A stretch of DNA of 32,000 nucleotides from Formosa sp. Hel1_33_131 (GTDB taxonomy: Bacteria; Bacteroidota; Bacteroidia; Flavobacteriales; Flavobacteriaceae), in contig NZ_CP017260.1 of assembly GCF_001735745.1 (NCBI RefSeq), positions 2,280,001-2,312,000 on the forward strand, in the 5' to 3' direction. The notes below the pieces were generated by a model, which saw nothing but the letters and a program-made list of their open reading frames with translations, was not told the origin of the DNA and made no database searches. Below are positions 5,548 to 24,878 of this stretch, piece after piece (within the stretch, counting starts at the first letter, position 1; the number at the start of each line of letters is the position of its first letter). The position numbers were made by a program, and so were the translations under genes.

Positions 5548-5590
5548 TTATATTTTTATAATCTTTTAAAAATCTAAAATTCAATGTTTT

Positions 5591-5651
5591 AGCTGGATAG
5601 AGCACCTCCCTTCTAAGGAGGCGGTCCTAGGTTCGAATCCTAGTGCGATCA
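5591..5651 (+). tRNA. Partial tRNA-Arg(UCU): only the 3' 61 nt (D-loop to discriminator), a probable att site remnant
   Basis: The fragment reads AGCTGGATA-GAGC-A-CCTCC-CTTCTAA-GGAGG-CGGTC-CTAGG-TTCGAAT-CCTAG-TGCGATC-A, with anticodon TCT. The expected 5' acceptor strand GATCGCA and the 5' D-stem GCTC are absent; the upstream sequence is ttcaatgtttt. Confidence 0.8.
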
Positions 5652-10791: not shown

Positions 10792-11166
10792 TTACTCTAT
10801 CACTCCTGCCCATGCATTGTGAGATTCTCCGAGAGTTATATTCAATGTGCCATTAAAAATAGAAGCAGCTTCCCTTTTGATTTCCTTTTGAATGTAAGTT
10901 GCTAGGTGTTCTGTAGTGCTCAACTGATTTTTAAACTGTGGTAGTTCATCAAGATTTTGATAGTTGAGTTCACTTAAAACCTCTTTAGTAATGCGGTGTG
11001 CTTCTCCCATATCAATTACGACATTAAACTCATTGAGTTCATCACTTATAAAAGTGACATCTACAGTAAATGTAGCACCGTGCATGTTCTGTGCAGGTCC
11101 AAAAAAAGGATTTGGCAACGAATGTGCAATCATGATACTCTCTCTAATTTTTACAAAATAGTTCAT
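10792..11166 (-). CDS. 6-pyruvoyl-tetrahydropterin synthase / QueD-fold (COG0720-like) protein with a degenerate active site
   Basis: A 124 aa ORF. It has ...IAHSL...GPAQNMHGATFTVDVTF where QueD/PTPS proteins carry ...H.L...Cx3HGH. The Cys and the last His are both Ala here. Confidence 0.6.
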   Translation of the reverse strand: MNYFVKIRESIMIAHSLPNPFFGPAQNMHGATFTVDVTFISDELNEFNVVIDMGEAHRITKEVLSELNYQNLDELPQFKNQLSTTEHLATYIQKEIKREAASIFNGTLNITLGESHNAWAGVIE

Positions 11167-11184: not shown

Positions 11185-12129
11185 TTAATAGTTGATAATG
11201 TTAATAATAGTGTCTTGGAATTGTCCTTGTCTTAATGCATTAAAAAAGTCTGGACTTTTTATAAATGGAATTTCGTTGGTGATTAATTTTTTATAAGTAC
11301 TGCTGTGATTTTGTAGGATTTCAATCGCTTTAGTTTTTCTGGATTTATAAGTTTCCGTATCTCTTTTTTGAATTGGTATTTCAGAAACTTGAACTGATTT
11401 TATATGCAATCTTTTGGTGTGAAATCTTCCCCCTAGATTTAATTGTACGCTGCGATTTCCATACCAGCTAAGCTCCAAAATAGTGCCTTCTTCACAACTG
11501 TTGTCGATGCAAAATTGCAATGCTTTTTCATTGGCAGTTGTGTTGTAACATATAGAGAATTCTTCAGGATAATTGTCCGTCTTAAAACCGAGTTTTTTGG
11601 CGATATCTAATTTACGAGGATTGCTTTCTTTTACATAGACATCCAAGTTGTATTCTTTAGCCAATGTGACGGCCAGCAAACTTCCAATACTTCCAAAACC
11701 ACACACCAAAATTTTACTAATTTCTGTTGGTTTTCCATCCCAAACCGCATTGATCACAGTCTCCATATTTGCAATTTGAGAGGCAACTTTCAGATCCATC
11801 CCTGTGGGGATAGGGGTCAGACTGTCCTCAGAAATAAGGCAATAATCTTGGTGGGGATGCATAAGGTGGTAAAAGCGTTTTTCGATTTCAAGGATCATCG
11901 AATACCCATATTGAATGGGGAAATTGAAATCTCCTTTTTGGTAAGGGACTTTCATAGTTTCTTGAAGTTCTTTAGGAATGTTCCCCGTAGCAACCAAACG
12001 CTCGGTGCCTGTGCTGATGTTAGAACAAACCGCCATACCCAACAGCAAACTTGATTCCGTTGGTATCGCCTCGTCTCTCAAAATAGATTCTTGTGAAGAA
12101 AGATGCCATAAACTTTTAGACTGTACCAT
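11185..12129 (-). CDS. Medium-chain dehydrogenase/reductase (zinc-type alcohol dehydrogenase-like) family protein
   Basis: A 314 aa ORF with a Rossmann GxGxxG (ILVCGFGSIGSLLA) in an MDR-like layout. Its ATG overlaps the upstream stop (TAATG). Confidence 0.7.
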   Translation of the reverse strand: MVQSKSLWHLSSQESILRDEAIPTESSLLLGMAVCSNISTGTERLVATGNIPKELQETMKVPYQKGDFNFPIQYGYSMILEIEKRFYHLMHPHQDYCLISEDSLTPIPTGMDLKVASQIANMETVINAVWDGKPTEISKILVCGFGSIGSLLAVTLAKEYNLDVYVKESNPRKLDIAKKLGFKTDNYPEEFSICYNTTANEKALQFCIDNSCEEGTILELSWYGNRSVQLNLGGRFHTKRLHIKSVQVSEIPIQKRDTETYKSRKTKAIEILQNHSSTYKKLITNEIPFIKSPDFFNALRQGQFQDTIINIINY

Positions 12130-13022
12130 TAGAATTTTGGGTTTAAGTAAGAACGCATCATAATGGCATTTCCAAACGGATAATATTCTGGGTTATTCAA
12201 CTGAATTGCTTCTGATACTTCTTTTATTTCATCGAATTCGATCGCATTAATTCCAGAGCCAAAAAGGAGTGGAGCGATGTGGAATTCCATCATGCTAATC
12301 AGATTATTTTTTAAAAAATGTTTGATGGTTTCCTTTCCGCCTTCCAGCAAAATTGAACGAATTCCTTGGGTTTTTAAGGCCATTAGTATTTCGCTTGGGT
12401 TCAAAACTCCGTTGTTTTTTTCAACAGAAATATAGGTTACCTTCGGATCTTTTAATTTGTCATTCTTGGGTCCGATGCATATAATTTTAGAGTTATTATT
12501 GGTACACAAGGAATCGTAATTGTTTTCCTCTGAAGTAATGACTATTTTCACGGAGTCTTTTCCCTCCACATGCCGAACATTGAGTTTTGGCTTATCATTT
12601 CTCAGCGTATTTCCACCAATCATCACACCATCTACAAGCGCTCTAATGCGATGGGAATGAATTCTGTTCTCCATGTTACCTATCCATTTGGAATGACCAG
12701 AATTGGTAGCGATTTTCCCATCTAAGCTTTGTGCCACATGCAAATAAACAACTGGTAATTTATTTCCTAAAGGGATCCATATAAATGGCAGATACAATTG
12801 CAATGCTTTTAAAAGATTTTGATCGACCTCAGGATTTGATTTTATTGAATAAGTATTCTTATTGTTGACAATTAAAACTGCGTCTTTTTCGACTGTAGAA
12901 GTTATTTCAGAAATAGAAACAACATCATTTTTTATCTTAAGCCCCTGGTTGATCAACCTTAGAGTAGGGAATAATTCTTTTATTTTTAAAATTGCTCGCC
13001 AATGTTCTTTTTTAATATTCAT
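12129..13022 (-). CDS. RibD C-terminal (reductase) domain / dihydrofolate-reductase-like family protein with a novel N-terminal extension
   Basis: The block VYLHVAQSLDGKIATNSGHSKWIGNMENRIHSHRIRALVDGVMIGGNTLRNDKPKLNVR is typical of RibD-type pyrimidine reductase domains. There is no deaminase domain; about 85 aa of unassigned sequence precede it. Confidence 0.7.
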   Translation of the reverse strand: MNIKKEHWRAILKIKELFPTLRLINQGLKIKNDVVSISEITSTVEKDAVLIVNNKNTYSIKSNPEVDQNLLKALQLYLPFIWIPLGNKLPVVYLHVAQSLDGKIATNSGHSKWIGNMENRIHSHRIRALVDGVMIGGNTLRNDKPKLNVRHVEGKDSVKIVITSEENNYDSLCTNNNSKIICIGPKNDKLKDPKVTYISVEKNNGVLNPSEILMALKTQGIRSILLEGGKETIKHFLKNNLISMMEFHIAPLLFGSGINAIEFDEIKEVSEAIQLNNPEYYPFGNAIMMRSYLNPKF

Positions 13023-14419
13023 CTGCGTAGGTATTTTTTTAGTTCGTTTAAATGATTTTTTAAAACAATAATTACTACAAAAAGTAACAATACTATGGAA
13101 TAGATTTGAAGGTATTCATGTTTTTTTATGAGTAAAGTGAAACTTAGAAATAAACTAACAAATCCCAAGGTTCGTAAGGTATTTAAATTTAAAATTGTTT
13201 TAGTAATACCGTTAACAATTTTGTAATAAATAATAAGGTTAATACTATTGGAAATGAGTGCAGTGTATAGAATTCCATTAATTCCATAAGAAGGAATCAA
13301 TGCATATAATAACACGATAATGATTAGAACTTTAAAGAAATAGACTTGGTTTAATAATTTTGTTTTTTTCTGTTGAACTAATACCATTGAAAAATAACGA
13401 TTGAGAATATAGGGCACTAATGAAATGCTAAGCAGAGGCAAAAACGAATAAATATTTTGATAGTGTTGTGGTTGGAGGATCTCACTAATATTTACCCCAA
13501 TAAAAAATAATACACAACTAATTACCGCAGCAAAGTCTAGATAAAATTGGGTGAGTGTTGAAATTTCTAAAGTATTATTTTTGTTTGGTTTTACAAGAAA
13601 AGAATAGAGGAAAGGTCTAATCGCGTTATCTAATATATTAAGAGATAAAACTAAAATAGCTGAGAGACTTAGAAGTACACCAAATTCTGCAACAGTTGTA
13701 AGCGGTTTATATTTTTCAAGTATGAATTTGTCAATATTTCCCTCAATAATCAAAAGGATCAGAAAGGGGACAAAAGCTATAGAAAACTTTAAACTTTTTA
13801 TAAGAGAATCATTTTTGAAATTGAAAAGTTTACATTTTTTTTGGTGTAATAAAATATATAAAAACAAAACAAGTTGCACTGCAATTGTTCCATACAAATA
13901 ACCCAGAATGCCTTCAGAAAAAATAACAATTAAAAAAAATTGGAGAAAAGCTTGACCCAAAACCGTAGTACTAATTATTTTAGAATACAAATTTGCATTC
14001 TTTTGATTTTGGATATAAATTATATATAAATTATTGATCCCGCTCAAAAGTGTTTGAATTAAAAAAAGAATCCCATAAGGGTAAAAATTTATAGCGTTAA
14101 CAAAACTAATTTCAAAAATGAAGTTTCCAGCGATCAAAAAAAACACAATCCAAAGTAAACCAAGAGAAATATTAAAACTAAAGAGCTGTGAAAAAAGATT
14201 TTCCTTTTCTTTTTTTTCACTGTACTCAAAATAAAGCGTACGCATTGCCATATCCGTTTTTAAGAAGGAAAAGGAATTGAAAATTGCGAAGAATGCGATT
14301 AATAAAGTCAGTACTCCATATTCCTCAACAGGGATATAATTGAGGTAAATGGGTAATAGAATAAAACCAAGGCAAGGTTGGAGAAAACTAATCAAGGTAA
14401 ATTTCAAAAAGGAAATCAT
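13019..14419 (-). CDS. Oligosaccharide/polysaccharide flippase (Wzx-like, MOP superfamily)
   Basis: A 466 aa ORF that is hydrophobic throughout, with about 12 or more predicted TM segments. It overlaps its neighbour by 4 nt. Confidence 0.7.
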   Translation of the reverse strand: MISFLKFTLISFLQPCLGFILLPIYLNYIPVEEYGVLTLLIAFFAIFNSFSFLKTDMAMRTLYFEYSEKKEKENLFSQLFSFNISLGLLWIVFFLIAGNFIFEISFVNAINFYPYGILFLIQTLLSGINNLYIIYIQNQKNANLYSKIISTTVLGQAFLQFFLIVIFSEGILGYLYGTIAVQLVLFLYILLHQKKCKLFNFKNDSLIKSLKFSIAFVPFLILLIIEGNIDKFILEKYKPLTTVAEFGVLLSLSAILVLSLNILDNAIRPFLYSFLVKPNKNNTLEISTLTQFYLDFAAVISCVLFFIGVNISEILQPQHYQNIYSFLPLLSISLVPYILNRYFSMVLVQQKKTKLLNQVYFFKVLIIIVLLYALIPSYGINGILYTALISNSINLIIYYKIVNGITKTILNLNTLRTLGFVSLFLSFTLLIKKHEYLQIYSIVLLLFVVIIVLKNHLNELKKYLRR

Positions 14420-14424
14420 AGGCT

Positions 14425-16095
14425 TTATGGAATTATACCGTCTGGTAATATTTTAAAATTTTCATGACCAACGCCGTAACTTTCTAATAATTTTTTCGTA
14501 AAAAGCGTGTAAAATCCTTCGTGTTTAATTGTCTTTTCAATAGTGTGTAAATCCAGATGGTTGTGAAACCCTTCTTTATGAAAAGAGCTAATAAAATTTT
14601 CATTCTTTGAAATTATGTATAAGGGCGTATTTTTCCCCATTTCTTTTGTGGTTATTTTAGGAGGTTGATGATCTCCAAACAGCACAAATATTGTGTTTTC
14701 ATCGGCTTTGTCTGCTATAAATTTAGTGAGGTAATCATATTGATATTTGGCAGCTTTCAGGTATTTATCTTCACTAAAAGTTTTATCATTTTTGGTAGTT
14801 TTAAAATCCAAAGTATTGTAATCTTTCCAGTTTTTCTGAGATTTTAATGGCGAATGCCATTGAGCGTGAGAATTCAGGCTCGAAAAAAACATAAAATAAG
14901 GAGCGCTATTTTTTATTTTGTTGTAGGCATAATTCAACGTATATTCATCAGGTATCGCTTTGAGAGTCATGAATTTTAGTAATTTCCCTGTATAATTAAG
15001 TTGGTCATGGTTAATGAAATTATCTGTTGCAAATATTTTAGACAATGTTTTCCAATCTATTTTATCGCGTTTTGAATTAACAATAGAATTTAAGCAATAG
15101 TTTTTATAATTATTACTTTTTAAGAAAGAAGGAAGGGATTGAAGATTGTCGTTTTTAGGATCCTTGAAAATTGTTTCATATTCTAATTCATTTTCGATTT
15201 TTAAACCACAAAGAAAGCTGGAAAAAGCCATCCAAGACCCTCCAGAATATATGGGAGATTCAGTATATGACGCCGCTGTTTTAAAATCATTAAGCAACAG
15301 CCTGTCATTAAACACCTTTAACAAAGGAGATATTTTATCGTATAAATCTTTCTTTTTGAATAAAATTTGCCCTAAAGACTCTACAGAAATAACAATGATG
15401 TTTGGTTTTTTCAATAAAGAGATGTTTTCTACACGATTTTGTTTTATAAAATCTTTTTTTACTTTAAACTTATTTTGTTTTATTGAATAAATACAACTTT
15501 TCACCAATGTTATAGTTGGCGATATCACTGTTCTCATTATATAATCTCCTATGGGGCGTTCATTTATTTTGTACAGCCCTGAAATGCATATATAGAAATA
15601 TAAAACAAGCAGTGAGGGTTCATGGAACTCTTGACGAATTAGTATTGAAATAAGAAATTCAAAACAAAAATAAAGGACTAAAATTACAAGGAATGAAACG
15701 GGAATTACTAAATACCGTAATCTGCCCAAAAAAATCAAACCCGACTTCCCCAGTATTAAATCGTTTAGTATTGAAATATCACGTTCAAAAAAAATCGTTA
15801 TTAATTGAGAATAAACAAAAGTGATTGTTCCTAATACACAGAATACAGTACAAATACTTATCAGAAATTCATTGTTTTTAAAGTATATCAATAAAATAAA
15901 AATAATGGCAAAATCGAAATTGATTCTAAAAAAATCTGAAGAATTTTTCCATAATAATATTCTCAATCTGTTTTTTAAACTCGTTTTAGAAAATAGATAT
16001 GAAGGCAACAGCTCTGGTTGATTTTTAAAATTTAAGATATATGCAGGCAAGAAGCATAAAAAATTAATACCTATAAAAAGTAGAATTCCTGTCAT
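14425..16095 (-). CDS. LTA-synthase-like sulfatase / phosphoglycerol-transferase family membrane protein (alkaline phosphatase superfamily)
   Basis: It has an N-terminal multi-TM region followed by an extracytoplasmic domain with PNIIVISVESLG and FGDHQP motifs, characteristic of LtaS/MdoB-type sulfatase-fold transferases. Confidence 0.7.
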   Translation of the reverse strand: MTGILLFIGINFLCFLPAYILNFKNQPELLPSYLFSKTSLKNRLRILLWKNSSDFFRINFDFAIIFILLIYFKNNEFLISICTVFCVLGTITFVYSQLITIFFERDISILNDLILGKSGLIFLGRLRYLVIPVSFLVILVLYFCFEFLISILIRQEFHEPSLLVLYFYICISGLYKINERPIGDYIMRTVISPTITLVKSCIYSIKQNKFKVKKDFIKQNRVENISLLKKPNIIVISVESLGQILFKKKDLYDKISPLLKVFNDRLLLNDFKTAASYTESPIYSGGSWMAFSSFLCGLKIENELEYETIFKDPKNDNLQSLPSFLKSNNYKNYCLNSIVNSKRDKIDWKTLSKIFATDNFINHDQLNYTGKLLKFMTLKAIPDEYTLNYAYNKIKNSAPYFMFFSSLNSHAQWHSPLKSQKNWKDYNTLDFKTTKNDKTFSEDKYLKAAKYQYDYLTKFIADKADENTIFVLFGDHQPPKITTKEMGKNTPLYIISKNENFISSFHKEGFHNHLDLHTIEKTIKHEGFYTLFTKKLLESYGVGHENFKILPDGIIP

Positions 16096-16424
16096 TTTGT
16101 AAATGGGATGAGTTTATACACCGTTTCTAATGTGTTTAAAAGTGTTTTGATTATCAGACCTCTCTAATGAACCAATACAACTTATACATTCTGGTAATTG
16201 TTTAATATTTGATAAGCCTCCTTTGGTCTTAGATATAAGTTACCTCTTTGTGAATAGGTTTTATCAAACCAGTTTTTAATTTTTTCTTGTTGCATTGAGA
16301 CAATCATTGAAATCGTTTTTTAATAATTTAGAAAGTACTTCCCCTATTCTCTGTAATTTATTTGTAAATTCACTCCCAAATATATCAATTTTTAAATCAA
16401 ATTTTGTGCCAACATTCTCCCTAA

Positions 16425-17078
16425 ATGAATTATAGTTCTACCTTTCTATGTTTTATGTATGCACTCACTGTTTTTGTGACTGTTTTCTTAAGTGTTTTTC
16501 TTAATGAGATAAGTTTTTTGGTATTCATTCCTCTCGTCTGCTTTCCAGTTTTTTGTTACAAGACCAAAGGTCCAAGTTTCCAATTAGTTCCCAATTGGAT
16601 CACCTTAATAAAATTAGTATTAACAATCGTTTTAATTTTTTTATTCCCTCAAGTAGAGGCGGCTTTAATTTCAATACTTTGTTTTACAATTATTGGAATC
16701 GATGTTCTGGACGGATTCATAGCTCGAAAGCTGCAGCAGACTTCTGAATTTGGAGCCATTTTTGATGCAGAGTCAGATGCTTTATATGTACTCGTTTGCT
16801 CGGTTGGAGTCTGTCTTTTTTATGAAATGCCATTTTGGGTTTTATTTATGGGGTTGATCCGCTACCTTTATGAAATCCCTGTATTTTTTCTAAAGAAAAA
16901 AGAAACAAAACCCAAAGAAGGAAGGAGTATTTATGTGATTTTAGCCGGCATTGTATTTATCCTCATTGCCATTTCTTTTGTTTTAGGAACCTATCAACTC
17001 CATGCATTGGCAGCGGCAAATGTTATTTTAGCATATTCATTCTCTAGAGGATTTTACGAAGATTTTATAAAAATATGA
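16425..17078 (+). CDS. CDP-alcohol phosphatidyltransferase family protein
   Basis: It has a perfect family signature Dx2DGx2ARx8Gx3Dx3D in DVLDGFIARKLQQTSEFGAIFDAESD and multiple TM segments. Confidence 0.85.
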   Translation: MNYSSTFLCFMYALTVFVTVFLSVFLNEISFLVFIPLVCFPVFCYKTKGPSFQLVPNWITLIKLVLTIVLIFLFPQVEAALISILCFTIIGIDVLDGFIARKLQQTSEFGAIFDAESDALYVLVCSVGVCLFYEMPFWVLFMGLIRYLYEIPVFFLKKKETKPKEGRSIYVILAGIVFILIAISFVLGTYQLHALAAANVILAYSFSRGFYEDFIKI

Positions 17079-18028
17079 TTTACTTAGTCGCTCCCCCTAT
17101 TGGAAGTGAGCCCACTGGTGGCTCTCTGTATAACCACTATATTACTTCTGAAAATGAGTTAGTCACACTATTGGAAGTTACCGAAGTGAATGAAATTGAA
17201 AACAAGATTGATCCAAACGCAATTGTAATCATTGACAGTCTATTGTTGGTCGATTATTTTAAAAGCCAATTGCATGAAAAATATAAAACTATAGGGATGA
17301 TTCATTTGCCTACCTTTTTTTTTAATGAAAGCAAAAAAAATAAACATGAATTAAGTTATTACCAGAAAATCCCATTACTCGTTACAGGAGATTCTTTTAA
17401 GTTGAACCTTATCCAAAAGTATAATTTAAAAGCAGAAAATATAACCACCGTTACGCCTGGGGTATTAGATATTATAAAAAAGAAGAAATTCAATAAACTG
17501 GTAAATAAAATTGTACTTGTAGCTTCTGTAACTAAAAATAAAGGGATTTTAGAATTCTTAAACCTAATGAAAGATCTGAGTGATTTCCCTTGGGAAATTC
17601 ATCTGTATGGTCCCAAAGCCGACCCAGAGTATTATCAAGAATTACAAGAATTGATCGTTGACAGTAATATGAAAGAACGCGTGTTTTTTCATGGCTATTT
17701 AGAACATTCAGAATTATTAAAGATGCTTTTAAATTACGATTTATTCGTTAATTTTTCAGTGTACGAAACCTTTGGAATGGCCATTTATGAAGCCTTGCAA
17801 ATTGGGTTGCCAGTAATGTCTTATAAGACAAATTTGGAAAGTACGTTTACAAAGCGGTCCAATTTTAGAAATTTTGATACAATCGAAGCGTTCAAAAATG
17901 AATTAGTGGAATTATTTACTGAAGTAAAAACATCTAAAAAATACCAAGCAAAAGAGGAGGTCGTGCCCAGAAGCTGGACGGATGTTAAAGAAGATTTTAA
18001 TGCAGTAGTCAAACGAATTATAATTTAA
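17075..18028 (+). CDS. Glycosyltransferase, GT-B fold (GT4/GT1-like)
   Basis: The C-terminal block YETFGMAIYEALQIGLPV carries the Ex7E motif. It overlaps the upstream gene by 4 nt (ATGA). Confidence 0.8.
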   Translation: MIYLVAPPIGSEPTGGSLYNHYITSENELVTLLEVTEVNEIENKIDPNAIVIIDSLLLVDYFKSQLHEKYKTIGMIHLPTFFFNESKKNKHELSYYQKIPLLVTGDSFKLNLIQKYNLKAENITTVTPGVLDIIKKKKFNKLVNKIVLVASVTKNKGILEFLNLMKDLSDFPWEIHLYGPKADPEYYQELQELIVDSNMKERVFFHGYLEHSELLKMLLNYDLFVNFSVYETFGMAIYEALQIGLPVMSYKTNLESTFTKRSNFRNFDTIEAFKNELVELFTEVKTSKKYQAKEEVVPRSWTDVKEDFNAVVKRIII

Positions 18029-18108
18029 GAACTAATTTTTAACGGTAGTAGTAGTTACTGTTCTTGTCAATGTTATATTGACACAAACAACTGATGAGTA
18101 TGTAACTG

Positions 18109-18180
18109 TCAATCTACCAACCGAACTTCTACAACAATTTTCTTTCCATCTGAAGTGGTGAAAAATAAATACAAATCCCC
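18109..18180 (-). pseudogene. Detached duplicate of the last 23 codons plus stop of the SAM-methyltransferase gene at 23694..24878
   Basis: It encodes GDLYLFFTTSDGKKIVVEVRLVD-stop, against GDLYLFFTSSNDKKIVVEGRLVS-stop at 23694-23765. The two match at 57/65 nt over the core with no indels. Homology stops exactly at the first RAYT element end. Confidence 0.8.
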
Positions 18181-18897
18181 CCTCGCTGCCGCACGAATCC
18201 TTTCGTGTGTGTAACTGCCGCCACGCTAAAGCGTAGTGGTTTGGTAGTTTGTAATTAGCTTTCATACATTCTAAAAATTAACACGTCATTTATAAGTCCT
18301 TTTTGGCCTGCATAATCAACGGCACTACTATAAACATAGTCTTCTGGATTATAAACCAATCCTTCTTGTACAGGATTATTGTGTACATAATTTATTTTTT
18401 GTTGAATAACCTTGTTGCTCCAAAGTTCAATAGGTTTATTATCATGTCGCCAAAATTGATAGTGTTTTACATTAGAGCTTTTTTTAGCTTCTTTTTTAAA
18501 AAAATCCAACATGAATTCTTTTCGACTTTCTCTTGGATTTTCCTGTATACTTTTTACAATTGAGTTGCTGGTAAATCGTTTTAAATCTCCAACCAATAAT
18601 TCTGGTTTTTGACCCTTTATACTTCTAAAAACTAAATGAACATGATTACTCATAAGACACCAAGCATGGATTTCTAATCCTTTATTTTTTTGACAGTACT
18701 CCAAACTCTCTAAAAACAAATCTTTATATTCATTCCTAGTAAATACGTCTAACCAACCTACAACAGAAAAACTTATAAAATAAAGTCCTTCTGGATTATT
18801 AAATTTATAATTTCTACTCATGTCTTTAATAGTTTAGCATGCATATCTTTATTGTTGTTTACGACACCACACGAAAGGATTCGTGCGGCAGCGGGGG
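18177..18897 (-). mobile_element. RAYT / IS200-like Y1-transposase element, copy 1, with REP-like terminal inverted hairpins
   Basis: The ends CCCCCCTCGCTGCCGCACGAATCCTTTCGTGTG and CACACGAAAGGATTCGTGCGGCAGCGGGGG are inverted repeats of about 30 bp, each containing a CACGAA/TTCGTG hairpin. The unit is about 721 bp. Confidence 0.85.
18255..18821 (-). CDS. REP-associated tyrosine transposase (RAYT; IS200-like Y1 HUH transposase)
   Basis: A 188 aa ORF with the HUH motif in SNHVHLVF and the catalytic-Tyr region INYVHNNPVQEGLV. Confidence 0.9.
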   Translation of the reverse strand: MSRNYKFNNPEGLYFISFSVVGWLDVFTRNEYKDLFLESLEYCQKNKGLEIHAWCLMSNHVHLVFRSIKGQKPELLVGDLKRFTSNSIVKSIQENPRESRKEFMLDFFKKEAKKSSNVKHYQFWRHDNKPIELWSNKVIQQKINYVHNNPVQEGLVYNPEDYVYSSAVDYAGQKGLINDVLIFRMYES

Positions 18898-19032
18898 ACT
18901 TAGTTTTGTTTTCATTTTTTATGTTCCTCAATAATTAGTTTAGTTATATCTATGTTAGTTTATTTTTTTTATATTCCTCAAAGTCGGGGGACTTTGAGGG
19001 GTTGATATGACTCACTTCGCATCAGTACGGTT

Positions 19033-19647
19033 TTATAAATTATTTTTCTTGTACGTTTTGTAGTCTAGCTCATTACACCAAAACCATTTTTTATGGATGA
19101 TGTATGTTTTGTTAATGTCTGACTTTCTTTTTGTAGGGGAAATCTTATAAATGCGACCCTTTTTCTTGTAAAAAATATCGGATTTAATATCATCCTTAAA
19201 TTTCTTTAAGTCTGATTTTGTAATATCATTTAACTTGCCTCTATAGATTATTTCTATAGAATTATAATTAATGATTTTAAACCAAATTTTATACTCAGTA
19301 ACCCCCATTCCTTCTGGGCTTGTTATAATTTGCATTTTAATGGTATCATTTGATAAGCTATATTTTCCATAAGAGCCATATTGAATAGAATTATCAAAAT
19401 TTTGTTCTGACCAGGATTTACCATGTCCTGATTTTACAAAACCATTATCATAAAAAATAAATTCGCCATTTGTAAGGTATTCATAATCTTCCCCTAAATA
19501 ATAAAACCCGTTTATATTTATTAGCGAATCTAATCCTGTTTTTTTTCCATCAAAACAATAATTAAAATTTTCACGCACTCCTTTTGGCACCATTATACAA
19601 GAGGTGATACAAAAAATAATTAAAAATAATGTTGTAATTTTTTTCAT
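19033..19647 (-). CDS. Orphan lipoprotein, possibly a polymorphic-toxin immunity protein
   Basis: I moved the start to MKKITTLFLIIFCITSC (lipobox) at 19647. It is the only gene in an 812 bp segment bracketed by two RAYT elements. Confidence 0.6.
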   Translation of the reverse strand: MKKITTLFLIIFCITSCIMVPKGVRENFNYCFDGKKTGLDSLININGFYYLGEDYEYLTNGEFIFYDNGFVKSGHGKSWSEQNFDNSIQYGSYGKYSLSNDTIKMQIITSPEGMGVTEYKIWFKIINYNSIEIIYRGKLNDITKSDLKKFKDDIKSDIFYKKKGRIYKISPTKRKSDINKTYIIHKKWFWCNELDYKTYKKNNL

Positions 19648-19709
19648 TTGTAATTTAATTTTTAGTCCCATAAAGAATATGAGTTATTTCTTACAGAATT
19701 TATATATAA

Positions 19710-20429
19710 CCCCTCGCTGCCGCACGAATCCTTTCGTGTGTGTAACTGCCGCCACGCTAAAGCGTAGTGGTTTGGTAGTTTGTAATTAGCTTTCATACAT
19801 TCTAAAAATTAACACGTCATTTATAAGTCCTTTTTGGCCTGCATAATCAACGGCACTACTATAAACATAGTCTTCTGGATTATAAACCAATCCTTCTTGT
19901 ACAGGATTATTGTGTACATAATTTATTTTTTGTTGAATAACCTTGTTGCTCCAAAGTTCAATAGGTTTATTATCATGTCGCCAAAATTGATAGTGTTTTA
20001 CATTAGAGCTTTTTTTAGCTTCTTTTTTAAAAAAATCCAACATGAATTCTTTTCGACTTTCTCTTGGATTTTCCTGTATACTTTTTACAATTGAGTTGCT
20101 GGTAAATCGTTTTAAATCTCCAACCAATAATTCTGGTTTTTGACCCTTTATACTTCTAAAAACTAAATGAACATGATTACTCATAAGACACCAAGCATGG
20201 ATTTCTAATCCTTTATTTTTTTGACAGTACTCCAAACTCTCTAAAAACAAATCTTTATATTCATTCCTAGTAAATACGTCTAACCAACCTACAACAGAAA
20301 AACTTATAAAATAAAGTCCTTCTGGATTATTAAATTTATAATTTCTACTCATGTCTTTAATAGTTTAGCATGCATATCTTTATTGTTGTTTACGACACCA
20401 CACGAAAGGATTCGTGCGGCAGCGGGGGG
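19710..20429 (-). mobile_element. RAYT / IS200-like element, copy 2
   Basis: Its body appears identical to copy 1 where I compared it, at a +1531 nt offset, with the same inverted termini. Confidence 0.85.
19786..20352 (-). CDS. REP-associated tyrosine transposase (RAYT), copy 2
   Basis: The protein is identical to copy 1 (188 aa). Confidence 0.9.
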   Translation of the reverse strand: MSRNYKFNNPEGLYFISFSVVGWLDVFTRNEYKDLFLESLEYCQKNKGLEIHAWCLMSNHVHLVFRSIKGQKPELLVGDLKRFTSNSIVKSIQENPRESRKEFMLDFFKKEAKKSSNVKHYQFWRHDNKPIELWSNKVIQQKINYVHNNPVQEGLVYNPEDYVYSSAVDYAGQKGLINDVLIFRMYES

Positions 20430-20436
20430 ACTCATA

Positions 20437-21111
20437 TTAATTCATTAATTTAAAATCTATAACATCTTCTTTGGGTTTAAAGTGGATAATCATTGACGCA
20501 GGAGTCGTTTTTTTATTGACTTCGGTTTTTACAATTTCTAGATGCAAATCTTTGCACAACAGTTTAGTGAGTTTATATTTTGAACTGGAATTTGAAAACC
20601 TAAACTCATACAGTTGGTCGTTAATTATAACGCCATTTCTTATGAAACACCCTTTTAAGAATTGTTTTTTTTGATGTTTTTGTTTAAATTTATTTTTTTT
20701 CAACATCCCCGTTTTAACTAAAAATTCTTTATCTAAAGCTTCATCATCATAATAAAAATCATCAGATTTTTTAAATTTGTAATAAGAATTAAACAATTTT
20801 GAATACTTTGAAGAATAAACCCTCGTTATAGGAGAATCTCCGTCCCCTTCAATAAATTCGAAATCTTCCATTTTCAAATTCACTTTTAATATTCCTAACT
20901 TAAATTGCTCCAAAGATTCACTTTGACCAGAATAAAAATCAGTTATATAATTTTTTTCCTTTGGATGATTTGGTAAAAACGGCTTCCCTCCGTAGTCATT
21001 CATCAAACCAATTAAAAAACTTAAATCTTCATTCTGCTTAGTAAAACCATCACTTGAGAAATCTAGTCCCAAGAAGATTAATACAATAACACTACTAAAT
21101 ATTAGCTTCAT
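20437..21111 (-). CDS. Secreted hypothetical protein, putative immunity protein for the upstream toxin domain
   Basis: A 224 aa ORF with signal peptide MKLIFSSVIVLIFLG. It starts 35 nt downstream of the toxin-domain stop on the same strand. Confidence 0.55.
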   Translation of the reverse strand: MKLIFSSVIVLIFLGLDFSSDGFTKQNEDLSFLIGLMNDYGGKPFLPNHPKEKNYITDFYSGQSESLEQFKLGILKVNLKMEDFEFIEGDGDSPITRVYSSKYSKLFNSYYKFKKSDDFYYDDEALDKEFLVKTGMLKKNKFKQKHQKKQFLKGCFIRNGVIINDQLYEFRFSNSSSKYKLTKLLCKDLHLEIVKTEVNKKTTPASMIIHFKPKEDVIDFKLMN

Positions 21112-21146
21112 TTATATTGTTTTATTTTAATTAAATAATTTTAAAT

Positions 21147-21959
21147 CTATTTTCTCCATAAACTAAATAATTTATGGTAAGATTCGAAGTCTTTTATTCT
21201 TACATATGTCCCACTTGGATTCATGATAGATATTCTGAATTTCGAAAAATCCGATAAATACCTTACTCGTTTTATAAGACTAGCATGATAACCACCTTTG
21301 ACTTTAAATGCACCTTGCACAACATGATTTAGTTTCATTTCATCAACCACCCATTTAAGTACAATCTCCTTTTTAAAAGTACCTTCAAAAAATTTACCTT
21401 TATAACCTCCTTCAGAGTACATCCGAAAAGCTGCTTGGTCTGATAACCCATTATTTAACTTTGCTATATTGAAATAATCTGAATTTACATTTTCTTGAGT
21501 TACCCCGAAATAATTATCAACAGATTTTTTACAGGCTATATAACAGTCGAAACCTTCTTTTTGAGGAATATTTCGTAATTTCAACCCTTTATCTACATCC
21601 CAATCTAATGCATCTTCAAAGTCTGCGAAAGTCGCTCCTTCAGATCCAAGTCCAGTAGTTATCTCATTCCATTGCTTACCACTCCAAAAATCTCTTCCAT
21701 CACTTTGTGCCTTAAGTCCAGCTGTCAATCCACCTATTGCAGCGCCTATGCCAGCACCTATTCCTGCATTTCCAAGAATTTGGCCAAAGTTATCTTCGTT
21801 TAATCCACTGGCAGTTGCTCCTGATGCAAAACCACCAGAGGCTCCAATAATCGCCCCATTATAAAATCCAGTTCCCTCGCTGCCGCACGAATCCTTTCGT
21901 GTGTGTAACTGCCGCCACGCTAAAGCGTAGTGGTTTGGTAGTTTGTAATTAGCTTTCAT
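21147..21959 (-). CDS. Orphan polymorphic-toxin C-terminal module (Gly-rich linker plus putative Cys/His papain-like toxin domain), fused 5' to REP-derived codons
   Basis: The first 29 codons (MKANYKLPNHYALAWRQLHTRKDSCGSEG) translate the RAYT-3 REP. Native sequence starts at about 21873 with GAIIGASGGFASGATASG...GAGIGAAIGGLTAGL, typical of pre-toxin linkers in Rhs proteins. A domain with DCYIAC ... GGYHASLI ... MNPS follows. Confidence 0.6.
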   Translation of the reverse strand: MKANYKLPNHYALAWRQLHTRKDSCGSEGTGFYNGAIIGASGGFASGATASGLNEDNFGQILGNAGIGAGIGAAIGGLTAGLKAQSDGRDFWSGKQWNEITTGLGSEGATFADFEDALDWDVDKGLKLRNIPQKEGFDCYIACKKSVDNYFGVTQENVNSDYFNIAKLNNGLSDQAAFRMYSEGGYKGKFFEGTFKKEIVLKWVVDEMKLNHVVQGAFKVKGGYHASLIKRVRYLSDFSKFRISIMNPSGTYVRIKDFESYHKLFSLWRK

Positions 21960-22592
21960 ACATTCTAAAAATTAACACGTCATTTATAAGTCCTTTTTGG
22001 CCTGCATAATCAACGGCACTACTATAAACATAGTCTTCTGGATTATAAACCAATCCTTCTTGTACAGGATTATTGTGTACATAATTTATTTTTTGTTGAA
22101 TAACCTTGTTGCTCCAAAGTTCAATAGGTTTATTATCATGTCGCCAAAATTGATAGTGTTTTACATTAGAGCTTTTTTTAGCTTCTTTTTTAAAAAAATC
22201 CAACATGAATTCTTTTCGACTTTCTCTTGGATTTTCCTGTATACTTTTTACAATTGAGTTGCTGGTAAATCGTTTTAAATCTCCAACCAATAATTCTGGT
22301 TTTTGACCCTTTATACTTCTAAAAACTAAATGAACATGATTACTCATAAGACTCCAAGCATGGATTTCTAATCCTTTATTTTTTTGACAGTACTCTAAAC
22401 TCTCTAAAAACAAATCTTTATATTCATTCCTAGTAAATACGTCTAACCAACCTACAACAGAAAAACTTATAAAATAAAGTCCTTCTGGATTATTAAATTT
22501 ATAATTTCTACTCATGTCTTTAATAGTTTAGCATGCATACCTTTATTGTTGTTTACGACACCACACGAAAGGATTCGTGCGGCAGCGGGGGG
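21874..22592 (-). mobile_element. RAYT / IS200-like element, copy 3
   Basis: It has the same unit and termini as copies 1 and 2. I noticed 3 substitutions relative to copy 1, one of them the C55S change. Confidence 0.85.
21949..22515 (-). CDS. REP-associated tyrosine transposase (RAYT), copy 3
   Basis: A 188 aa ORF with one difference from copies 1 and 2 (HAWCLM to HAWSLM). Confidence 0.9.
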   Translation of the reverse strand: MSRNYKFNNPEGLYFISFSVVGWLDVFTRNEYKDLFLESLEYCQKNKGLEIHAWSLMSNHVHLVFRSIKGQKPELLVGDLKRFTSNSIVKSIQENPRESRKEFMLDFFKKEAKKSSNVKHYQFWRHDNKPIELWSNKVIQQKINYVHNNPVQEGLVYNPEDYVYSSAVDYAGQKGLINDVLIFRMYES

Positions 22593-23442
22593 TCCAATTA
22601 AAACTGAGATTAAAAGGCGTATAACTATTTAAAACATAAAGGTTTTCAATTGCTTTAGGAGGTATCACATAACGTAAATTTCCTATATCGTCATAAACAT
22701 AATAGCTGCTGGATTTTTTCAGGATTCCTGCGTCCTCTTCATAGCCAAATTCAGCTATTTTTCTTCCATTTTTGTCTGTAAAAACGTCTTTGGTATTTAG
22801 TAATCCATCCGAAACAGTCCAGTTTTCATTTTTTACACTATTTTTTAAAAGTTCCCCTGTTTTATAATAAGATATGATGAAAGGGTTATTCGTTTCATTT
22901 CGGATCTTAAACAAAAGAACTTCATTTAGGTTGTTGACACCATAGTCATATTTTGCGGTATGATTTGTATCTGGATTACTAAGTATTTGCCATATGTTTC
23001 CAGGCGCGGAAGTTTCTAGTTTTCTGTTTAAAGGCGAATTGTCATACCGTACTTCCGAAAAAGGATGTTGATCCGCAAACGCGTTCTGATAATAAGATGT
23101 TATTTGTGTCTCTGCATTAGAAATATAATGACCCGTATCTTGTGTGGTTGGCAGCGCTAAAAACTGTTTGGTAGTTCTTCCAAATTGATCGTATTGAATG
23201 TGCTGTACAATATCTTTTTTTGTTGGACTCTGTTTTATTCCAACAGATTGTTTTGCTTTACCAAAACCATCAAAATAGGTAACACTTTCTATTTTTTTGA
23301 CAGAATTATAGTCAGTGTTAAGCGTGTTTATATCAGTTGCTTCTAACAGCTCTATTGACTTCACATAGTTTTGGTCGGGTGATTGTGCAAATCCAAAAGC
23401 CATAAATAGACTCATCAATAGCGTAAGATTCCTTTTTTTCAT
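22543..23442 (-). pseudogene. N-terminal fragment of a DUF6443/Rhs-family polymorphic toxin, truncated by RAYT copy 3
   Basis: The start MKKRNLTLLMSLFMAFGFAQS (signal peptide) is followed by NYVKS...VTYFDGFGKAKQSV...YDQFGRTTKQFLALP...YDNSPLNR, typical of Bacteroidota Rhs N-termini. Native sequence ends at 22593. The last 17 codons or so (PRCRTNPFVWCRKQQ) are REP-derived. No YD-repeat shell or Rhs core follows. Confidence 0.75.
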
Positions 23443-23693: not shown

Positions 23694-24878
23694 TCAGGAC
23701 ACCAACCGACCTTCCACAACAATTTTCTTGTCATTTGAACTGGTGAAAAACAAATATAAATCCCCGCCATCGGAGAGTTTAAAAAGAATTTTAAGAGCCT
23801 CTATTTTTTCTGAGAAATTACGTGTTTTCACATTGGCTTTTAGACCGCCAATGGCTTTTTTCAAAAGCTTCTTTTGATAGGGGTAGCAATTTGAAATCGT
23901 ATATACTTTCCCTGGAAAATCAACTATCTTTTCATCGCCGGTATATAAATGCGTGTGCGGGTCTAGTTTGTCTAGCCTATATTTAGTTGAAATTAATTTA
24001 AACGCACCAGACTTCATCACGGCGGCATTTGGTTCGTAGAGATACGTCTTTGGGGAGCTAAATGTCGCTTCTACATTTTCTTCTTGGGGTATTTCAAAGG
24101 AAAAGTGTTCCGTGTTTTTAGGATGGCTGTTAAGCGTCTGAAGCGTCGCCGTGCCATTAAAGTCTTTTTCCTGATGAAATAATAACTCTTTTACCTCGTT
24201 TTTCACCGCCACAATATAAACAGTTTTCACATGCTTCAAGGCTGTGACTCCAACGCTAATATCAAGCATTGGTGACATTTTAATAAGCACATTTTTAGTG
24301 TGTTTAAAAAATAAATCTTGATGTGTAATCACATTTGGACTGCAATCTTCAATCAGGAATTTTTTATTCTTTTGTGCATCCCGTCTCGATGGGTCAATGT
24401 ACATCCAATCAAACGTATCGGAACATGATTTTAAAAATTCAATTCCATCTTTGTTGTGAGATTCTATGTTTTTAACACCTAAAATCTCAAAATTATAAGC
24501 GGCTATCTCAGCCAATTTGGAGTCCATTTCACAATGCACCACCGACTTAAATTGTTTTGAAAAATAATAGCTATCGACACCAAATCCGCCCGTCAAATCT
24601 ACAAGTGATTCGCCTTGCATAAATTCACTTTTTATAAGGGCTGCCGTTTCGGAAGACGTCTGTTCAATATTGAGTTTGTTGGGGTAATAAATTTTAGGCG
24701 TCTCAAACCAAGTTTTTAATTTTAAAGCACACTTTTTCTTTGCTTCAATTTGCTCAATCAATTCCTTAATATCAAGCCCCTCAAAAGGACTTCCTTTTAG
24801 AATTAACTCATGAATATTTGAGTTTATATGGGTATTTATAAAATCTTGTATATCGCTATTTAGAAGAATTTTGTTCAC
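23694..24878 (-). CDS. Class I SAM-dependent methyltransferase (394 aa, substrate unknown)
   Basis: It has the SAM motif I region LVDLTGGFGVDSYYFS and an acidic motif II (VHCEMD), plus a conserved C-terminal extension. Confidence 0.75.
   Translation of the reverse strand: MNKILLNSDIQDFINTHINSNIHELILKGSPFEGLDIKELIEQIEAKKKCALKLKTWFETPKIYYPNKLNIEQTSSETAALIKSEFMQGESLVDLTGGFGVDSYYFSKQFKSVVHCEMDSKLAEIAAYNFEILGVKNIESHNKDGIEFLKSCSDTFDWMYIDPSRRDAQKNKKFLIEDCSPNVITHQDLFFKHTKNVLIKMSPMLDISVGVTALKHVKTVYIVAVKNEVKELLFHQEKDFNGTATLQTLNSHPKNTEHFSFEIPQEENVEATFSSPKTYLYEPNAAVMKSGAFKLISTKYRLDKLDPHTHLYTGDEKIVDFPGKVYTISNCYPYQKKLLKKAIGGLKANVKTRNFSEKIEALKILFKLSDGGDLYLFFTSSNDKKIVVEGRLVS

Follow-up and report, generated by a model that had tools for sequence, protein, structure and literature searches.

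Three near-identical RAYT elements beside truncated toxin genes in an Rhs array of Formosa sp. Hel1_33_131

A triplicated element in an Rhs array

The stretch of DNA analysed here (the window, 32 kb from Formosa sp. Hel1_33_131) holds an Rhs array in which repeat search and alignment identified three direct repeats of 718 bp each, packed into 4.4 kb (Table 1). Copies 1 and 2 are identical across all 718 nt, and copy 3 differs from them by three SNPs, at 22353 (Cys55 to Ser), 22396 (silent, Leu40) and 22540 (5' of the ATG), giving pairwise identities of 99.6−100%. Homology between the copies ends 0−1 nt from the REP termini, and the flanks of all three are unrelated. In gene orientation the element reads CCCCCGCTGCC...GCAGCGAGGG, with edges that are ambiguous by 1−2 C/G bases.

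Every copy is bounded by two inverted 30-nt repeats that lie 658 nt apart and are 97% complementary, and DNA folding gives each terminus a hairpin of 6−9 bp (CACGAA-NNNN-TTCGTG). The window has 6 occurrences of the terminal 25-mer, where 0.00 would be expected, all of them within the three units; searching with this terminus, we found no solitary REP outside them in the 32 kb. Each unit carries one 188-aa ORF on the minus strand, with NHVH and YVHNNP motifs. The sequence-only reading of this DNA had described three near-identical, directly oriented elements with a 188-aa HUH/Y1 ORF, identical copies 1 and 2 with three differences in copy 3, inverted REP-like termini of about 30 bp with hairpins, and as neighbours a methyltransferase fragment, a lipoprotein cassette, a toxin/immunity cassette (the 224-aa gene and the Rhs toxin piece of Table 1), and an Rhs N-terminus; alignment and the protein models described below agree with all of this.

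Table 1. Coordinates of the elements, genes and gene remnants in the window
Feature	Position	Strand	Description	Accession
RAYT element copy 1	18180..18897	-	3' REP 18180-18209, CDS 18255-18821, 5' REP 18868-18897	AOR29241
RAYT element copy 2	19711..20428	-	CDS 19786-20352, REPs 19711-19740 and 20399-20428	AOR29243
RAYT element copy 3	21874..22591	-	CDS 21949-22515; 3 SNPs	AOR29246
Rhs N-terminal remnant	22592..23442	-	signal peptide and DUF6443 (E=1.2e-36); annotated 'RhsD'	AOR29247
Rhs C-terminal toxin tip	21147..21873	-	matches L122 from nt 3887 on with 100% identity	
224-aa gene	20437..21111	-	immediately follows the Rhs toxin tip; also behind the intact Rhs in L122 and L146	
Ntox23-type toxin end	19663..19710	-	last 15 codons and stop; abuts 3' end of copy 2	
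212-aa lipoprotein gene	19033..19671	-	gene order in L126 and L146	
THUMP-like SAM methyltransferase 3' remnant	18032..18179	-	last ~22 codons and downstream DNA; abuts 3' end of copy 1	
Intact methyltransferase gene	23694..24878	-	lies upstream of Rhs; its 3' end forms the second copy of the 65-nt duplication	

Family membership and known systems

The encoded protein passes the NCBIfam model REP_Tyr_transpos (NF047646, 87.8 bits against a cut-off of 80) and matches Pfam Y1_Tnp (E=2.6e-9, 37.7 against a cut-off of 23). It is thus a Y1 enzyme of the RAYT/IS200 superfamily, as the sequence-only reading had proposed. Across 23 homologues there is no variation at the catalytic residues His60 and Tyr145, and at least 90% keep His62. 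The C55S change of copy 3 hits another residue invariant in 23 family members, and this copy may be dead. In all three copies the RAYT gene is bracketed by REP hairpins in inverted orientation, which is the REPtron arrangement; the three units are therefore best read as copies of a putatively autonomous REPtron, a RAYT gene between two inverted REP hairpins.

Subclass 2.6 of Quentin (2018), which is group 5 of Bertels (2017), is defined by the motifs NH[LIV]H and YIH[QN]NP, a length of ~179 aa, occurrence in Bacteroidetes and a REP with a weak hairpin and no GT[AG]G foot (PMC6006769). Matched by eye, the Formosa element (NHVH, YVHNNP, 188 aa, a REP without GTAG) appears to fit this subclass in both motifs and REP type, and the motifs of subclass 2.4 fit too. 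The supplement of the RAYT subclass survey (Quentin 2018) holds no REP matching that of the Formosa element.

With the RAYT/TnpA_REP REPtrons (the E. coli type, subclass 2.2, and the Bacteroidetes type, 2.6) the element shares a HUH/Y1 protein of ~180−190 aa with Y---NP and NHVH, inverted REP hairpins around the gene, and a REP dispersed in Bacteroidota genomes; the lack of a GT[AG]G foot and the weak hairpin are in line with subclass 2.6. Many Bacteroidota genomes carry the same REP as dispersed singlets, doublets and tandem clusters, and solitary REPs lie in the arrays of related strains (L120, L038, L125) and at no fewer than 119 loci of other Bacteroidota. Unlike known REPtrons, the Formosa element occurs in three near-identical copies, has many junctions in the population and is conserved above its flanks, and its 32-kb window is free of solitary REPs. 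RAYTs are found at about 1.3−1.8 copies per replicon, with few near-identical duplicates (Bertels 2017, PMC5581495), copy numbers that bear out the earlier remark that a multi-copy state is atypical for them.

Several features are shared with the IS200/IS605 family (IS200, IS608), namely a Y1 HUH transposase, multiple identical copies, end hairpins, the absence of a target duplication and a strong orientation bias. In contrast to that family, whose ends are different sub-terminal hairpins on one strand, the Formosa element ends in 30-nt inverted repeats, and it has neither tnpB nor a conserved 4−5 nt target beside one end. We rejected this assignment because the IS200 model (NF033573) scores only 25.6 bits, under its cut-off of 55, the ends are mutually inverted and no conserved flank motif is seen among the 9 or more 5' and 14 or more 3' flanks.

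The array resembles Rhs/CDI loci in having a main Rhs gene (DUF6443, YD core, DPxGx, variable tip), an immunity gene and orphan pairs of toxin fragment and immunity gene; further such pairs in Rhs arrays involve Ntox23, M23 and Imm7, and array content varies among strains. Zhang et al. (2012, PMC3482391) interpret strings of immunity genes as the remains of repeated tip replacement. The orphans of classical Rhs/CDI loci keep a conserved core piece and are swapped with the main gene by homologous recombination, whereas at the Formosa locus the portable homology is the 718-bp RAYT element. Tip replacement was not seen at the Formosa-type Rhs locus, the outcome found being loss of core or toxin. 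E. coli Rhs elements are accompanied by IS-like H-rpt elements; our literature search found no paper connecting RAYTs to Rhs arrays.

Integron arrays, too, are made up of short cassettes that lack promoters, some of them bordered by imperfect hairpins, and rely on an enzyme whose substrate is folded single-stranded DNA. The Formosa locus differs from them in repeating its enzyme within the array, and an integron was rejected because the locus has no IntI or other tyrosine recombinase and many cassette borders are without a hairpin. No cassette movement was seen in Formosa-type arrays.

Interrupted genes and retained neighbours

An intact Rhs gene of 1433 aa lies at the same locus in two metagenome contigs of the same species (L122 and L146). 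The L122 allele has the make-up of an Rhs polymorphic toxin, with DUF6443 and RHS_repeat, a YD-repeat core ending in DPxGx ('...SVDPDGEF...'), a variable toxin tip and a putative immunity gene downstream. Of this gene the window keeps no more than 284 aa at the N-terminus and 242 aa at the C-terminus; about 2.7 kb of the Rhs core (L122 nt 1165−3886) is absent and is exactly replaced by copy 3. The N-terminal remnant, 99.3% identical to L122 nt 1−1164, ends after codon ~284, where the 5' end of copy 3 interrupts it. The toxin tip begins 58 aa past the DPDGE core end, within a Gly-rich linker, and frame analysis shows that it is read in frame from an ATG that lies within copy 3, forming an ORF at 21147−21959; a Pfam search with the tip gave no match. 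The 224-aa gene that follows, for which Pfam and NCBIfam searches gave no match, is presumed from its position to be the cognate immunity gene.

Each copy in the window abuts a gene remnant with its 3' end, that of the Rhs toxin tip (copy 3), of an Ntox23 toxin (copy 2) and of a methyltransferase (copy 1), and all copies are co-oriented with every interrupted gene. Contig L126 carries a full Ntox23 toxin (Pfam Ntox23, 5.8e-31) upstream of the same lipoprotein gene, whose position suggests that it is the orphan immunity gene of the deleted toxin. At copy 1, the methyltransferase end is present as a 65-nt duplication (18116−18180 and 23701−23765, 88% identity), and it is the displaced version that is 100% identical to the methyltransferase end of L122. 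The copies had been described as sitting exactly at module junctions; they lie instead at deletion scars inside genes.

Population junctions and modes of movement

Among same-species contigs we counted at least 9 distinct 5' junctions and at least 14 distinct 3' junctions of the element, where the pairing of a 5' with a 3' flank in a short-read metagenome contig may be an assembler chimera across the 718-bp repeat. The 3' junctions include three places within one gene and positions inside housekeeping genes. Contig L135, in which an Rhs like that of the window meets a divergent queD remnant, is a possible chimera of this kind. The Rhs gene is also cut by the element at aa ~630 (L135) and aa ~503 (L120). 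The locus is structurally polymorphic: L122 and L146 have an intact Rhs, three other alleles are each truncated differently by the RAYT, and the set of cassettes varies. In L147 the Rhs gene is rearranged at aa ~346 with no REP at the breakpoint, so part of the variation at the locus is not linked to the RAYT.

The sequence-only reading had set its proposal against two outcomes, dozens of random copies in the genome and an arrangement fixed among relatives; the data show neither. The complete genome has just three GenBank accessions with the exact RAYT protein, all at this locus; all recovered same-species junctions fall inside this array or at its edge; and the related strains are polymorphic as described. 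Between the window and L120/L038 the element is 99.3−99.9% identical, far above the flanking DNA at 88.8−95.0%. The exact boundaries of the copies, the many junctions and the excess of element identity over flank identity therefore indicate recent mobility, and of the earlier proposal of recent mobility or local amplification it is mobility that is backed. We conclude that the RAYT REPtron has probably moved as a whole unit recently, or still does, and that the deletions probably came about by recombination between copies. Copy identity could instead reflect gene conversion. No target motif or consensus was detected among the 5' and 3' flanks, and no target duplication was seen at the element junctions. 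Neither a simple insertion (both flanks contiguous in an empty site) nor an excision product was found among the recovered contigs, and whole-unit transposition is thus deduced from copy structure rather than observed.

We propose that the REPtron landed repeatedly, always co-oriented, in or beside the single Rhs locus of Formosa sp. Hel1_33_131 and its relatives, presumably by the single-strand 'peel-and-paste' chemistry of HUH/Y1 enzymes. The 718-bp direct copies would then act as homology for host recombination, and a crossover between two of them, probably a RecA-type deletion, would remove all DNA between them and leave a single copy between the upstream half of one interrupted gene and the downstream remainder of a second. 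Such crossovers would explain why the Rhs core is missing at copy 3, why the Ntox23 toxin is gone at copy 2 and how a methyltransferase tail came to be stranded at copy 1; deletion of this kind needs co-oriented copies, and the observed orientation fits. The net result would be that toxin genes are lost and the downstream putative immunity genes retained. Read in this way, self-copying has occurred in a class of transposase that is normally portrayed as a single, immobile copy, and this copying is linked to toxin gene loss beside retained putative immunity genes. Of the shuffling or deletion of toxin modules suggested earlier, deletion and erosion are borne out, whereas shuffling rests on possibly chimeric flank pairings, and nothing in the data shows a dedicated or adaptive mechanism.

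The RAYT might alternatively be domesticated and immobile, its copies arising by local segmental duplication or unequal crossing-over with gene conversion and spreading by homologous recombination of the whole locus. We consider this unlikely, since flank homology past the REP termini is absent in every copy pair, the different 3' junctions are hard to obtain without insertion events, and between strains the element is far more alike than the surrounding locus; this explanation would nevertheless agree with the confinement of all recovered same-species copies to one locus, with the lack of a further accession for the three exact proteins in the genome, with the absence of a target-site signature or empty site, and with the literature, in which RAYTs are not expected to copy themselves (PMC5581495, PMC6006769).

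An integron-like exchange, in which REP hairpins serve as recombination sites and the RAYT cuts and rejoins single-stranded DNA to move toxin/immunity cassettes, is quite unlikely and is not supported as a role of the element. Cassettes between two elements are bracketed by inverted REPs, as is the RAYT gene itself, but a REP is not found at every cassette (five cassette genes share one REP in L145, and four in L142). In other Bacteroidota, 8 of the 17 loci that contain Rhs have a solitary REP with the same 22-mer 5−66 nt from the limit of Rhs homology, where a uniform null predicts 2.3 (P=0.0006); this null is too lenient because REPs are intergenic anyway. Multi-copy or remnant RAYTs of the family in toxin/immunity arrays of Polaribacter, Chryseobacterium and Geofilum, and stuttered partial REPs at some element 5' ends, would also suit such exchange. 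On the other hand, some breakpoints of cassette homology are not near a REP, one of them lying 13 nt before the start of the 224-aa gene; orphan Rhs fragments of Chryseobacterium start alike at YIYQYKDHLGN whether or not a REP is present; and in a Pfam census of 119 loci the 150 REP-adjacent ORFs were ordinary genes with no toxin/immunity enrichment over controls.

An assembly or annotation artefact, in which the assembler expanded or misplaced a single element, is very improbable for the arrangement, for although short-read assemblers struggle with 718-bp repeats and many members of the family lie on contigs of <2 kb, the window comes from the complete genome of an isolate (2,735,158 bp), copy 3 has private SNPs, and the independent contigs L146 (which spans imm224-RAYT-lipoprotein at 99.9% identity to the window), L123, L121 and L124 reproduce each window junction and the order imm224-RAYT-lipoprotein-RAYT.

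Beyond the mobile REPtron that we favour for Formosa, this Bacteroidota RAYT/REP family might be no mere passenger but a self-mobilising REPtron specialised on polymorphic-toxin arrays in several orders, acting as a mobile 'disarm but stay immune' device or perhaps as an agent of RAYT-catalysed cassette exchange, which we regard as unlikely. Orphan modules would in that case be made by the RAYT cutting Rhs and toxin genes, and the outward ORF, whose ATG overlaps the stop codon of the RAYT gene, would maintain translation of the remnant and of the immunity gene downstream.

The spacer after the lipoprotein gene holds a second palindrome, unrelated to the REP, at 18976..18999 (CCTCAAAGTC-GGGG-GACTTTGAGG), which folds with −10.2 kcal/mol (z = −6.8). 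Repeats resembling it (CAAAGTC...GACTTTG) are found in Chryseobacterium Rhs arrays.

The mobile unit and its transposase

The three repeats are copies of a REPtron, a RAYT gene between two inverted REP hairpins, which behaves like an insertion sequence and lies within an Rhs toxin array that it erodes. Repeat finding and alignment delimit a 718-bp unit present three times in direct orientation (see table); copies 1 and 2 are the same at every base, copy 3 differs from them at 22353, 22396 and 22540, and pairwise identity stops 0-1 nt from the unit ends. Each unit carries a 188-aa minus-strand ORF with the motifs NHVH and YVHNNP. The encoded protein matches Pfam Y1_Tnp (E=2.6e-9) and passes NF047646, the NCBI curated equivalog for REP-associated tyrosine transposases (87.8 bits, cut-off 80); assignment to IS200 was rejected, with 25.6 bits against the 55 required in the IS200 model. 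The unit ends in 30-nt inverted repeats (97% complementary), each with a short CACGAA/TTCGTG hairpin; read along the gene, the element is CCCCCGCTGCCGCACGAATCCTTTCGTGTGG...RAYT...CACACGAAAGGATTCGTGCGGCAGCGAGGG. The 25-mer of the terminus occurs 6 times in the 32-kb window (0.00 expected), never outside the three units. The alignment and the two protein models thus bear out the sequence-only reading, which had described three near-identical direct units with inverted REP termini and an HUH/Y1 RAYT, the first two copies identical and the third with three differences.

The difference at 22353 changes Cys55 to Ser in copy 3. Across 23 family members this cysteine, part of an AWC motif immediately preceding the HUH histidines, never varies, and the substitution may leave copy 3 catalytically impaired. 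A PDB sequence search with the RAYT protein gave no match, its AlphaFold model is poor (mean pLDDT 50), and Rfam returned nothing at the element.

The isolate Formosa sp. Hel1_33_131 has a complete genome of 2,735,158 bp. Exact look-up of the two RAYT protein sequences returned only the three GenBank accessions of the copies, implying a genome that has no further identical copies and possibly holds diverged ones. Cumulative GC skew reaches its maximum at ~18 kb (window ~17000-19000) and then declines, the peak coinciding with the switch from plus- to minus-strand genes at the array edge. Elsewhere in the window, a partial tRNA match in Rfam (35.4 bits, model 8-63), without ARAGORN confirmation, may be a tRNA fragment or a false positive.

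Features of the array and of related contigs (positions refer to the window unless a contig or locus, L-number, is named)
Feature	Position	GenBank accession
Partial tRNA match	5590-5643	
queD/PTPS counterpart	10792-11166	
Strain-variable cluster	11185-18028	
Glycosyltransferase		AOR29240
Methyltransferase 3' end, both versions	18116-18180; 23701-23765	
RAYT copy 1 (minus strand)	18180-18897	AOR29241
Palindrome	18976-18999	
Lipoprotein gene (212 aa)	19033-19671	AOR29242
Outward ORF	19663-19790	
RAYT copy 2 (minus strand)	19711-20428	AOR29243
224-aa gene	20437-21111	AOR29244
Toxin-tip ORF		AOR29245
Outward ORF	21147-21959	
RAYT copy 3 (minus strand)	21874-22591	AOR29246
'RhsD', 318 aa		AOR29247
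Methyltransferase		AOR29249
Outward ORF, L120	4130-4936	
Outward ORF, L128	51-365	
Outward ORF, L116 (Polaribacter)	1132-1395	
Stuttered REPs, L125	~575-615	
Stuttered REPs, L120	~3470-3510	
Stuttered REPs, L134	939-1062	
RAYT-less derivative, L137	42-105	
RAYT-less derivative, L139	793-857	
RAYT-less derivative, L143	673-736	
BIME-like cluster, L032	246-1507	

Gene scars and variation between strains

Exact RAYT protein look-ups and one JGI metagenome scan yielded ~25 same-species contigs at 99-100% identity. Time-series metagenomes are also available from what, judging by the sample identifiers, is probably the North Sea habitat of Formosa sp. Hel1_33_131. At this locus, contigs L122 and L146 have the Rhs gene intact (1433 aa), laid out as signal peptide, DUF6443, YD core, '...SVDPDGEF...' and toxin tip; the 224-aa gene and a RAYT element come next. 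The alignment of the window with L122 holds to nt 1164 and resumes at nt 3887, copy 3 exactly replacing the 2.7 kb between, and ~907 codons of the Rhs core are missing there. Adjoining the 3' end of copy 2 are the final 15 codons of a toxin gene whose intact form is present in contig L126 (Ntox23, E=5.8e-31); since the full toxin there precedes the same 212-aa lipoprotein gene, we interpret the latter as an orphan immunity gene. Copy 1 in turn meets, at its 3' end, the final ~22 codons of a methyltransferase gene, whose intact end lies some five kilobases away. This 3' end is found at both edges of the Rhs array as a 65-nt imperfect duplication (88%), and in L122 the intact methyltransferase carries the 'remnant' version, a pattern suggesting that the array was inserted or replaced by way of two homology arms, one in the methyltransferase gene and the other a RAYT copy. 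All three copies and every interrupted gene share one orientation. The copies do lie between cassettes, as had been proposed, but each sits at a gene scar rather than at an exact module junction.

In other strains the same Rhs gene is cut at different points, by the 5' end of the element at aa ~630 in contig L135 and by the element at aa ~503 in L120, a 237-kb contig from a strain with flanks only 88.8-95% identical to the window. The strain comparison that the sequence-only reading had looked to therefore reveals structural polymorphism, the Rhs gene being intact in L122 and L146 and truncated in the window, L120 and L135. A fourth candidate truncation, L147, was rejected; it is rearranged at aa ~346 with no REP at the breakpoint, so the Rhs locus varies by other routes too.

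Across the contigs we counted at least 9 distinct 5' flanks and at least 14 distinct 3' flanks; aligning these, with the uninterrupted Rhs of L122 for comparison, gave no target-site duplication or consensus. The 3' flanks include two Gly-rich toxin linkers, an M23 peptidase fragment, the neighbourhood of an Imm7 immunity gene and a remnant of queD/PTPS. In the lineages of L120, L038 and L135 the array reaches queD (the 10.7-kb region of the window) and a 7-kb cluster is missing. This cluster, which encodes a glycosyltransferase, a CDP-alcohol phosphatidyltransferase, a sulfatase, a flippase-like protein and others, is present in the window, L121, L124 and L130, and forms a second strain-variable segment beside the array.

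Two further forms of the element were seen. Three contigs carry 'stuttered' partial REPs directly before the complete 5' terminus, which could be traces left when cleavage and joining were aborted; the stutter in L120, where several genes are apparently frameshifted, could also be a sequencing or assembly error. In three others a RAYT-less derivative, consisting of only the first 65 nt of the element 5' end, is fused to unrelated cassette genes.

RAYTs are the textbook domesticated transposase, single-copy and vertically inherited, and are held to move only their REP or REPIN partners, never themselves. We consider it probable that here a mobile REPtron inserted several times and that recombination between the copies then deleted DNA. 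A REPtron still mobile as a unit would have made several co-oriented insertions into the Rhs locus, and recombination of direct copies would have removed the intervening DNA, leaving single copies between non-contiguous gene halves, with toxin genes lost and putative downstream immunity genes kept. Family membership points to HUH single-strand chemistry and the scars point to recombination; neither an empty site nor an excision product was found among the same-species contigs.

Between the window and L120/L038 the element keeps 99.3-99.9% identity, a level far exceeding that of the flanks and implying either recent spread between lineages or strong homogenisation. Together with the number of distinct flanks, this supports recent mobility, one of the two possibilities proposed earlier. 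The alternative of an immobile RAYT, amplified through segmental duplication and gene conversion, seems to us unlikely. Among the contigs, the end of the 224-aa gene appears in combination with three different 3' flanks. Each single junction must exist in reads; the pairing of 5' and 3' flanks over a 718-bp repeat may be chimeric in short-read contigs, and we therefore do not rely on the combinations. Integron-like cassette exchange catalysed by the RAYT is, in our judgement, distinctly improbable. Of the proposed shuffling or deletion of toxin modules, deletion is supported, the Rhs core and Ntox23 having been lost, while the shuffled combinations are possibly chimeric. That the arrangement is an assembly artefact is hardly credible, as the window comes from an isolate genome, which makes a metagenome assembly artefact unlikely.

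Insertion of a mobile REPtron followed by deletion would be a concrete route by which strains of an abundant bloom bacterium could lose an Rhs toxin yet keep putative immunity genes, which is relevant to strain-level competition in the sea. Movement of a RAYT and its REPs as a unit also bears on how RAYTs enter new genomes. With an isolate and a complete genome, the Formosa locus is a natural, cultivable test case in which element ends, copies and products are directly assayable.

The REP contains a stop codon in no frame. The RAYT stop codon shares bases with an ATG, from which an ORF (MKANYKLPNHYALAWRQLHTRKDSCGSEG-) runs outward across the 3' REP. All four toxin-ORF junctions (Rhs tip at copy 3, Ntox23 tail at copy 2, the L120 toxin and the M23 fragment) are in frame with this outward ORF, and neither of the two housekeeping remnants is; the chance of four in four is 0.012, calculated post hoc. 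The same layout occurs in Polaribacter locus L116. Such in-frame fusion may reflect translational coupling selected to keep the downstream immunity gene translated, or chance.

The REP family and its relation to toxin loci

The REP families described for Proteobacteria are far more lineage-specific than the Formosa REP, whose 22-mer GCCGCACGAATCCTTTCGTGTG is exactly conserved over several Bacteroidota orders. Exact matches occur in at least 119 stretches of representative genomes, from Flavobacterium, Chryseobacterium, Kaistella, Polaribacter, Marinifilum, Geofilum and Paludibacter as well as Bacteroidales, Chitinophaga and Saprospiraceae MAGs. They are arranged as singlets, inverted doublets, tandem clusters and pairs bracketing RAYT genes, the latter 64-87% identical to the Formosa RAYT. 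Two BIME-like clusters were observed. One, in Flavobacterium fluviatile (L032), has seven REPs at ~80-nt spacing with a RAYT gene alongside; in the other, from Chryseobacterium sp. Leaf394 (L085), 13 REPs spread over 8 kb are interspersed among small toxin-like genes, genes for DUF6705 lipoproteins and RAYT remnants.

At E≤1e-20 the protein family comprises 2,942 members, for which sources use the names RayT and REP-associated tyrosine transposase. In its motifs, its length, its host phylum and the absence of a GT[AG]G foot from its REP, the Formosa RAYT fits subclass 2.6 of Quentin 2018 (PMC6006769), equivalent to group 5 of Bertels 2017 (PMC5581495), an assignment made from published descriptions and one for which the description of subclass 2.4 would also serve. 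From subclass 2.6 as described, with 1.8 copies per genome and 40.7% identity (PMC6006769, PMC5581495), the element departs in both copy number and identity. The supplement of Quentin 2018 (PMC6006769) contains no matching REP, and a literature search found no published link of RAYTs to Rhs arrays and no account of the Formosa REP.

Evidence that the family is tied to toxin loci is mixed. Rhs homologues are present in 17 of the 119 loci listed, all retrieved by the REP alone; a REP cuts the Rhs reading frame in L024, L066 and L108, and in other loci it lies 16-66 nt before an orphan Rhs fragment. In a permutation test, 8 of the 17 had a REP near the edge of Rhs homology (2.3 expected, P=0.0006), a result that is suggestive only, because the uniform null is too lenient and ignores the intergenic habit of REPs. 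The idea that the REP marks toxin cassettes everywhere was rejected by a Pfam census of 150 REP-adjacent and 127 control ORFs from the 119 REP-selected loci listed, which found mostly ordinary genes and no enrichment. REPs are absent at many cassette borders in this Formosa species. Nor does the REP define the start of the Chryseobacterium orphans, whose common start YIYQYKDHLGN occurs with or without it. We conclude that solitary REPs are ordinary dispersed REPs.

Loci with at least two RAYT copies or with RAYT remnants sit among toxin/immunity-like genes. Polaribacter L116 has two copies, 98.6% identical, plus an M23 fragment; the neighbours of Chryseobacterium RAYTs include SUKH, a Gln_amidase toxin, a weak Imm35 match and DUF6705; and in Geofilum (L101) two copies surround a 980-aa protein with a metalloprotease-like HExxH motif and no Pfam match. 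Toxin/immunity arrays thus tend to collect whole RAYT copies, perhaps because insertions are tolerated there and the arrays themselves spread horizontally.

The spacer that follows the lipoprotein gene contains a perfect palindrome unrelated to the REP, CCTCAAAGTC-GGGG-GACTTTGAGG (fold z = -6.8). Hairpins of similar sequence, CAAAGTC...GACTTTG, stand beside orphan Rhs fragments in three Chryseobacterium loci (L091, L098 and L114), and the palindrome may represent a second REP-like family in the same arrays.
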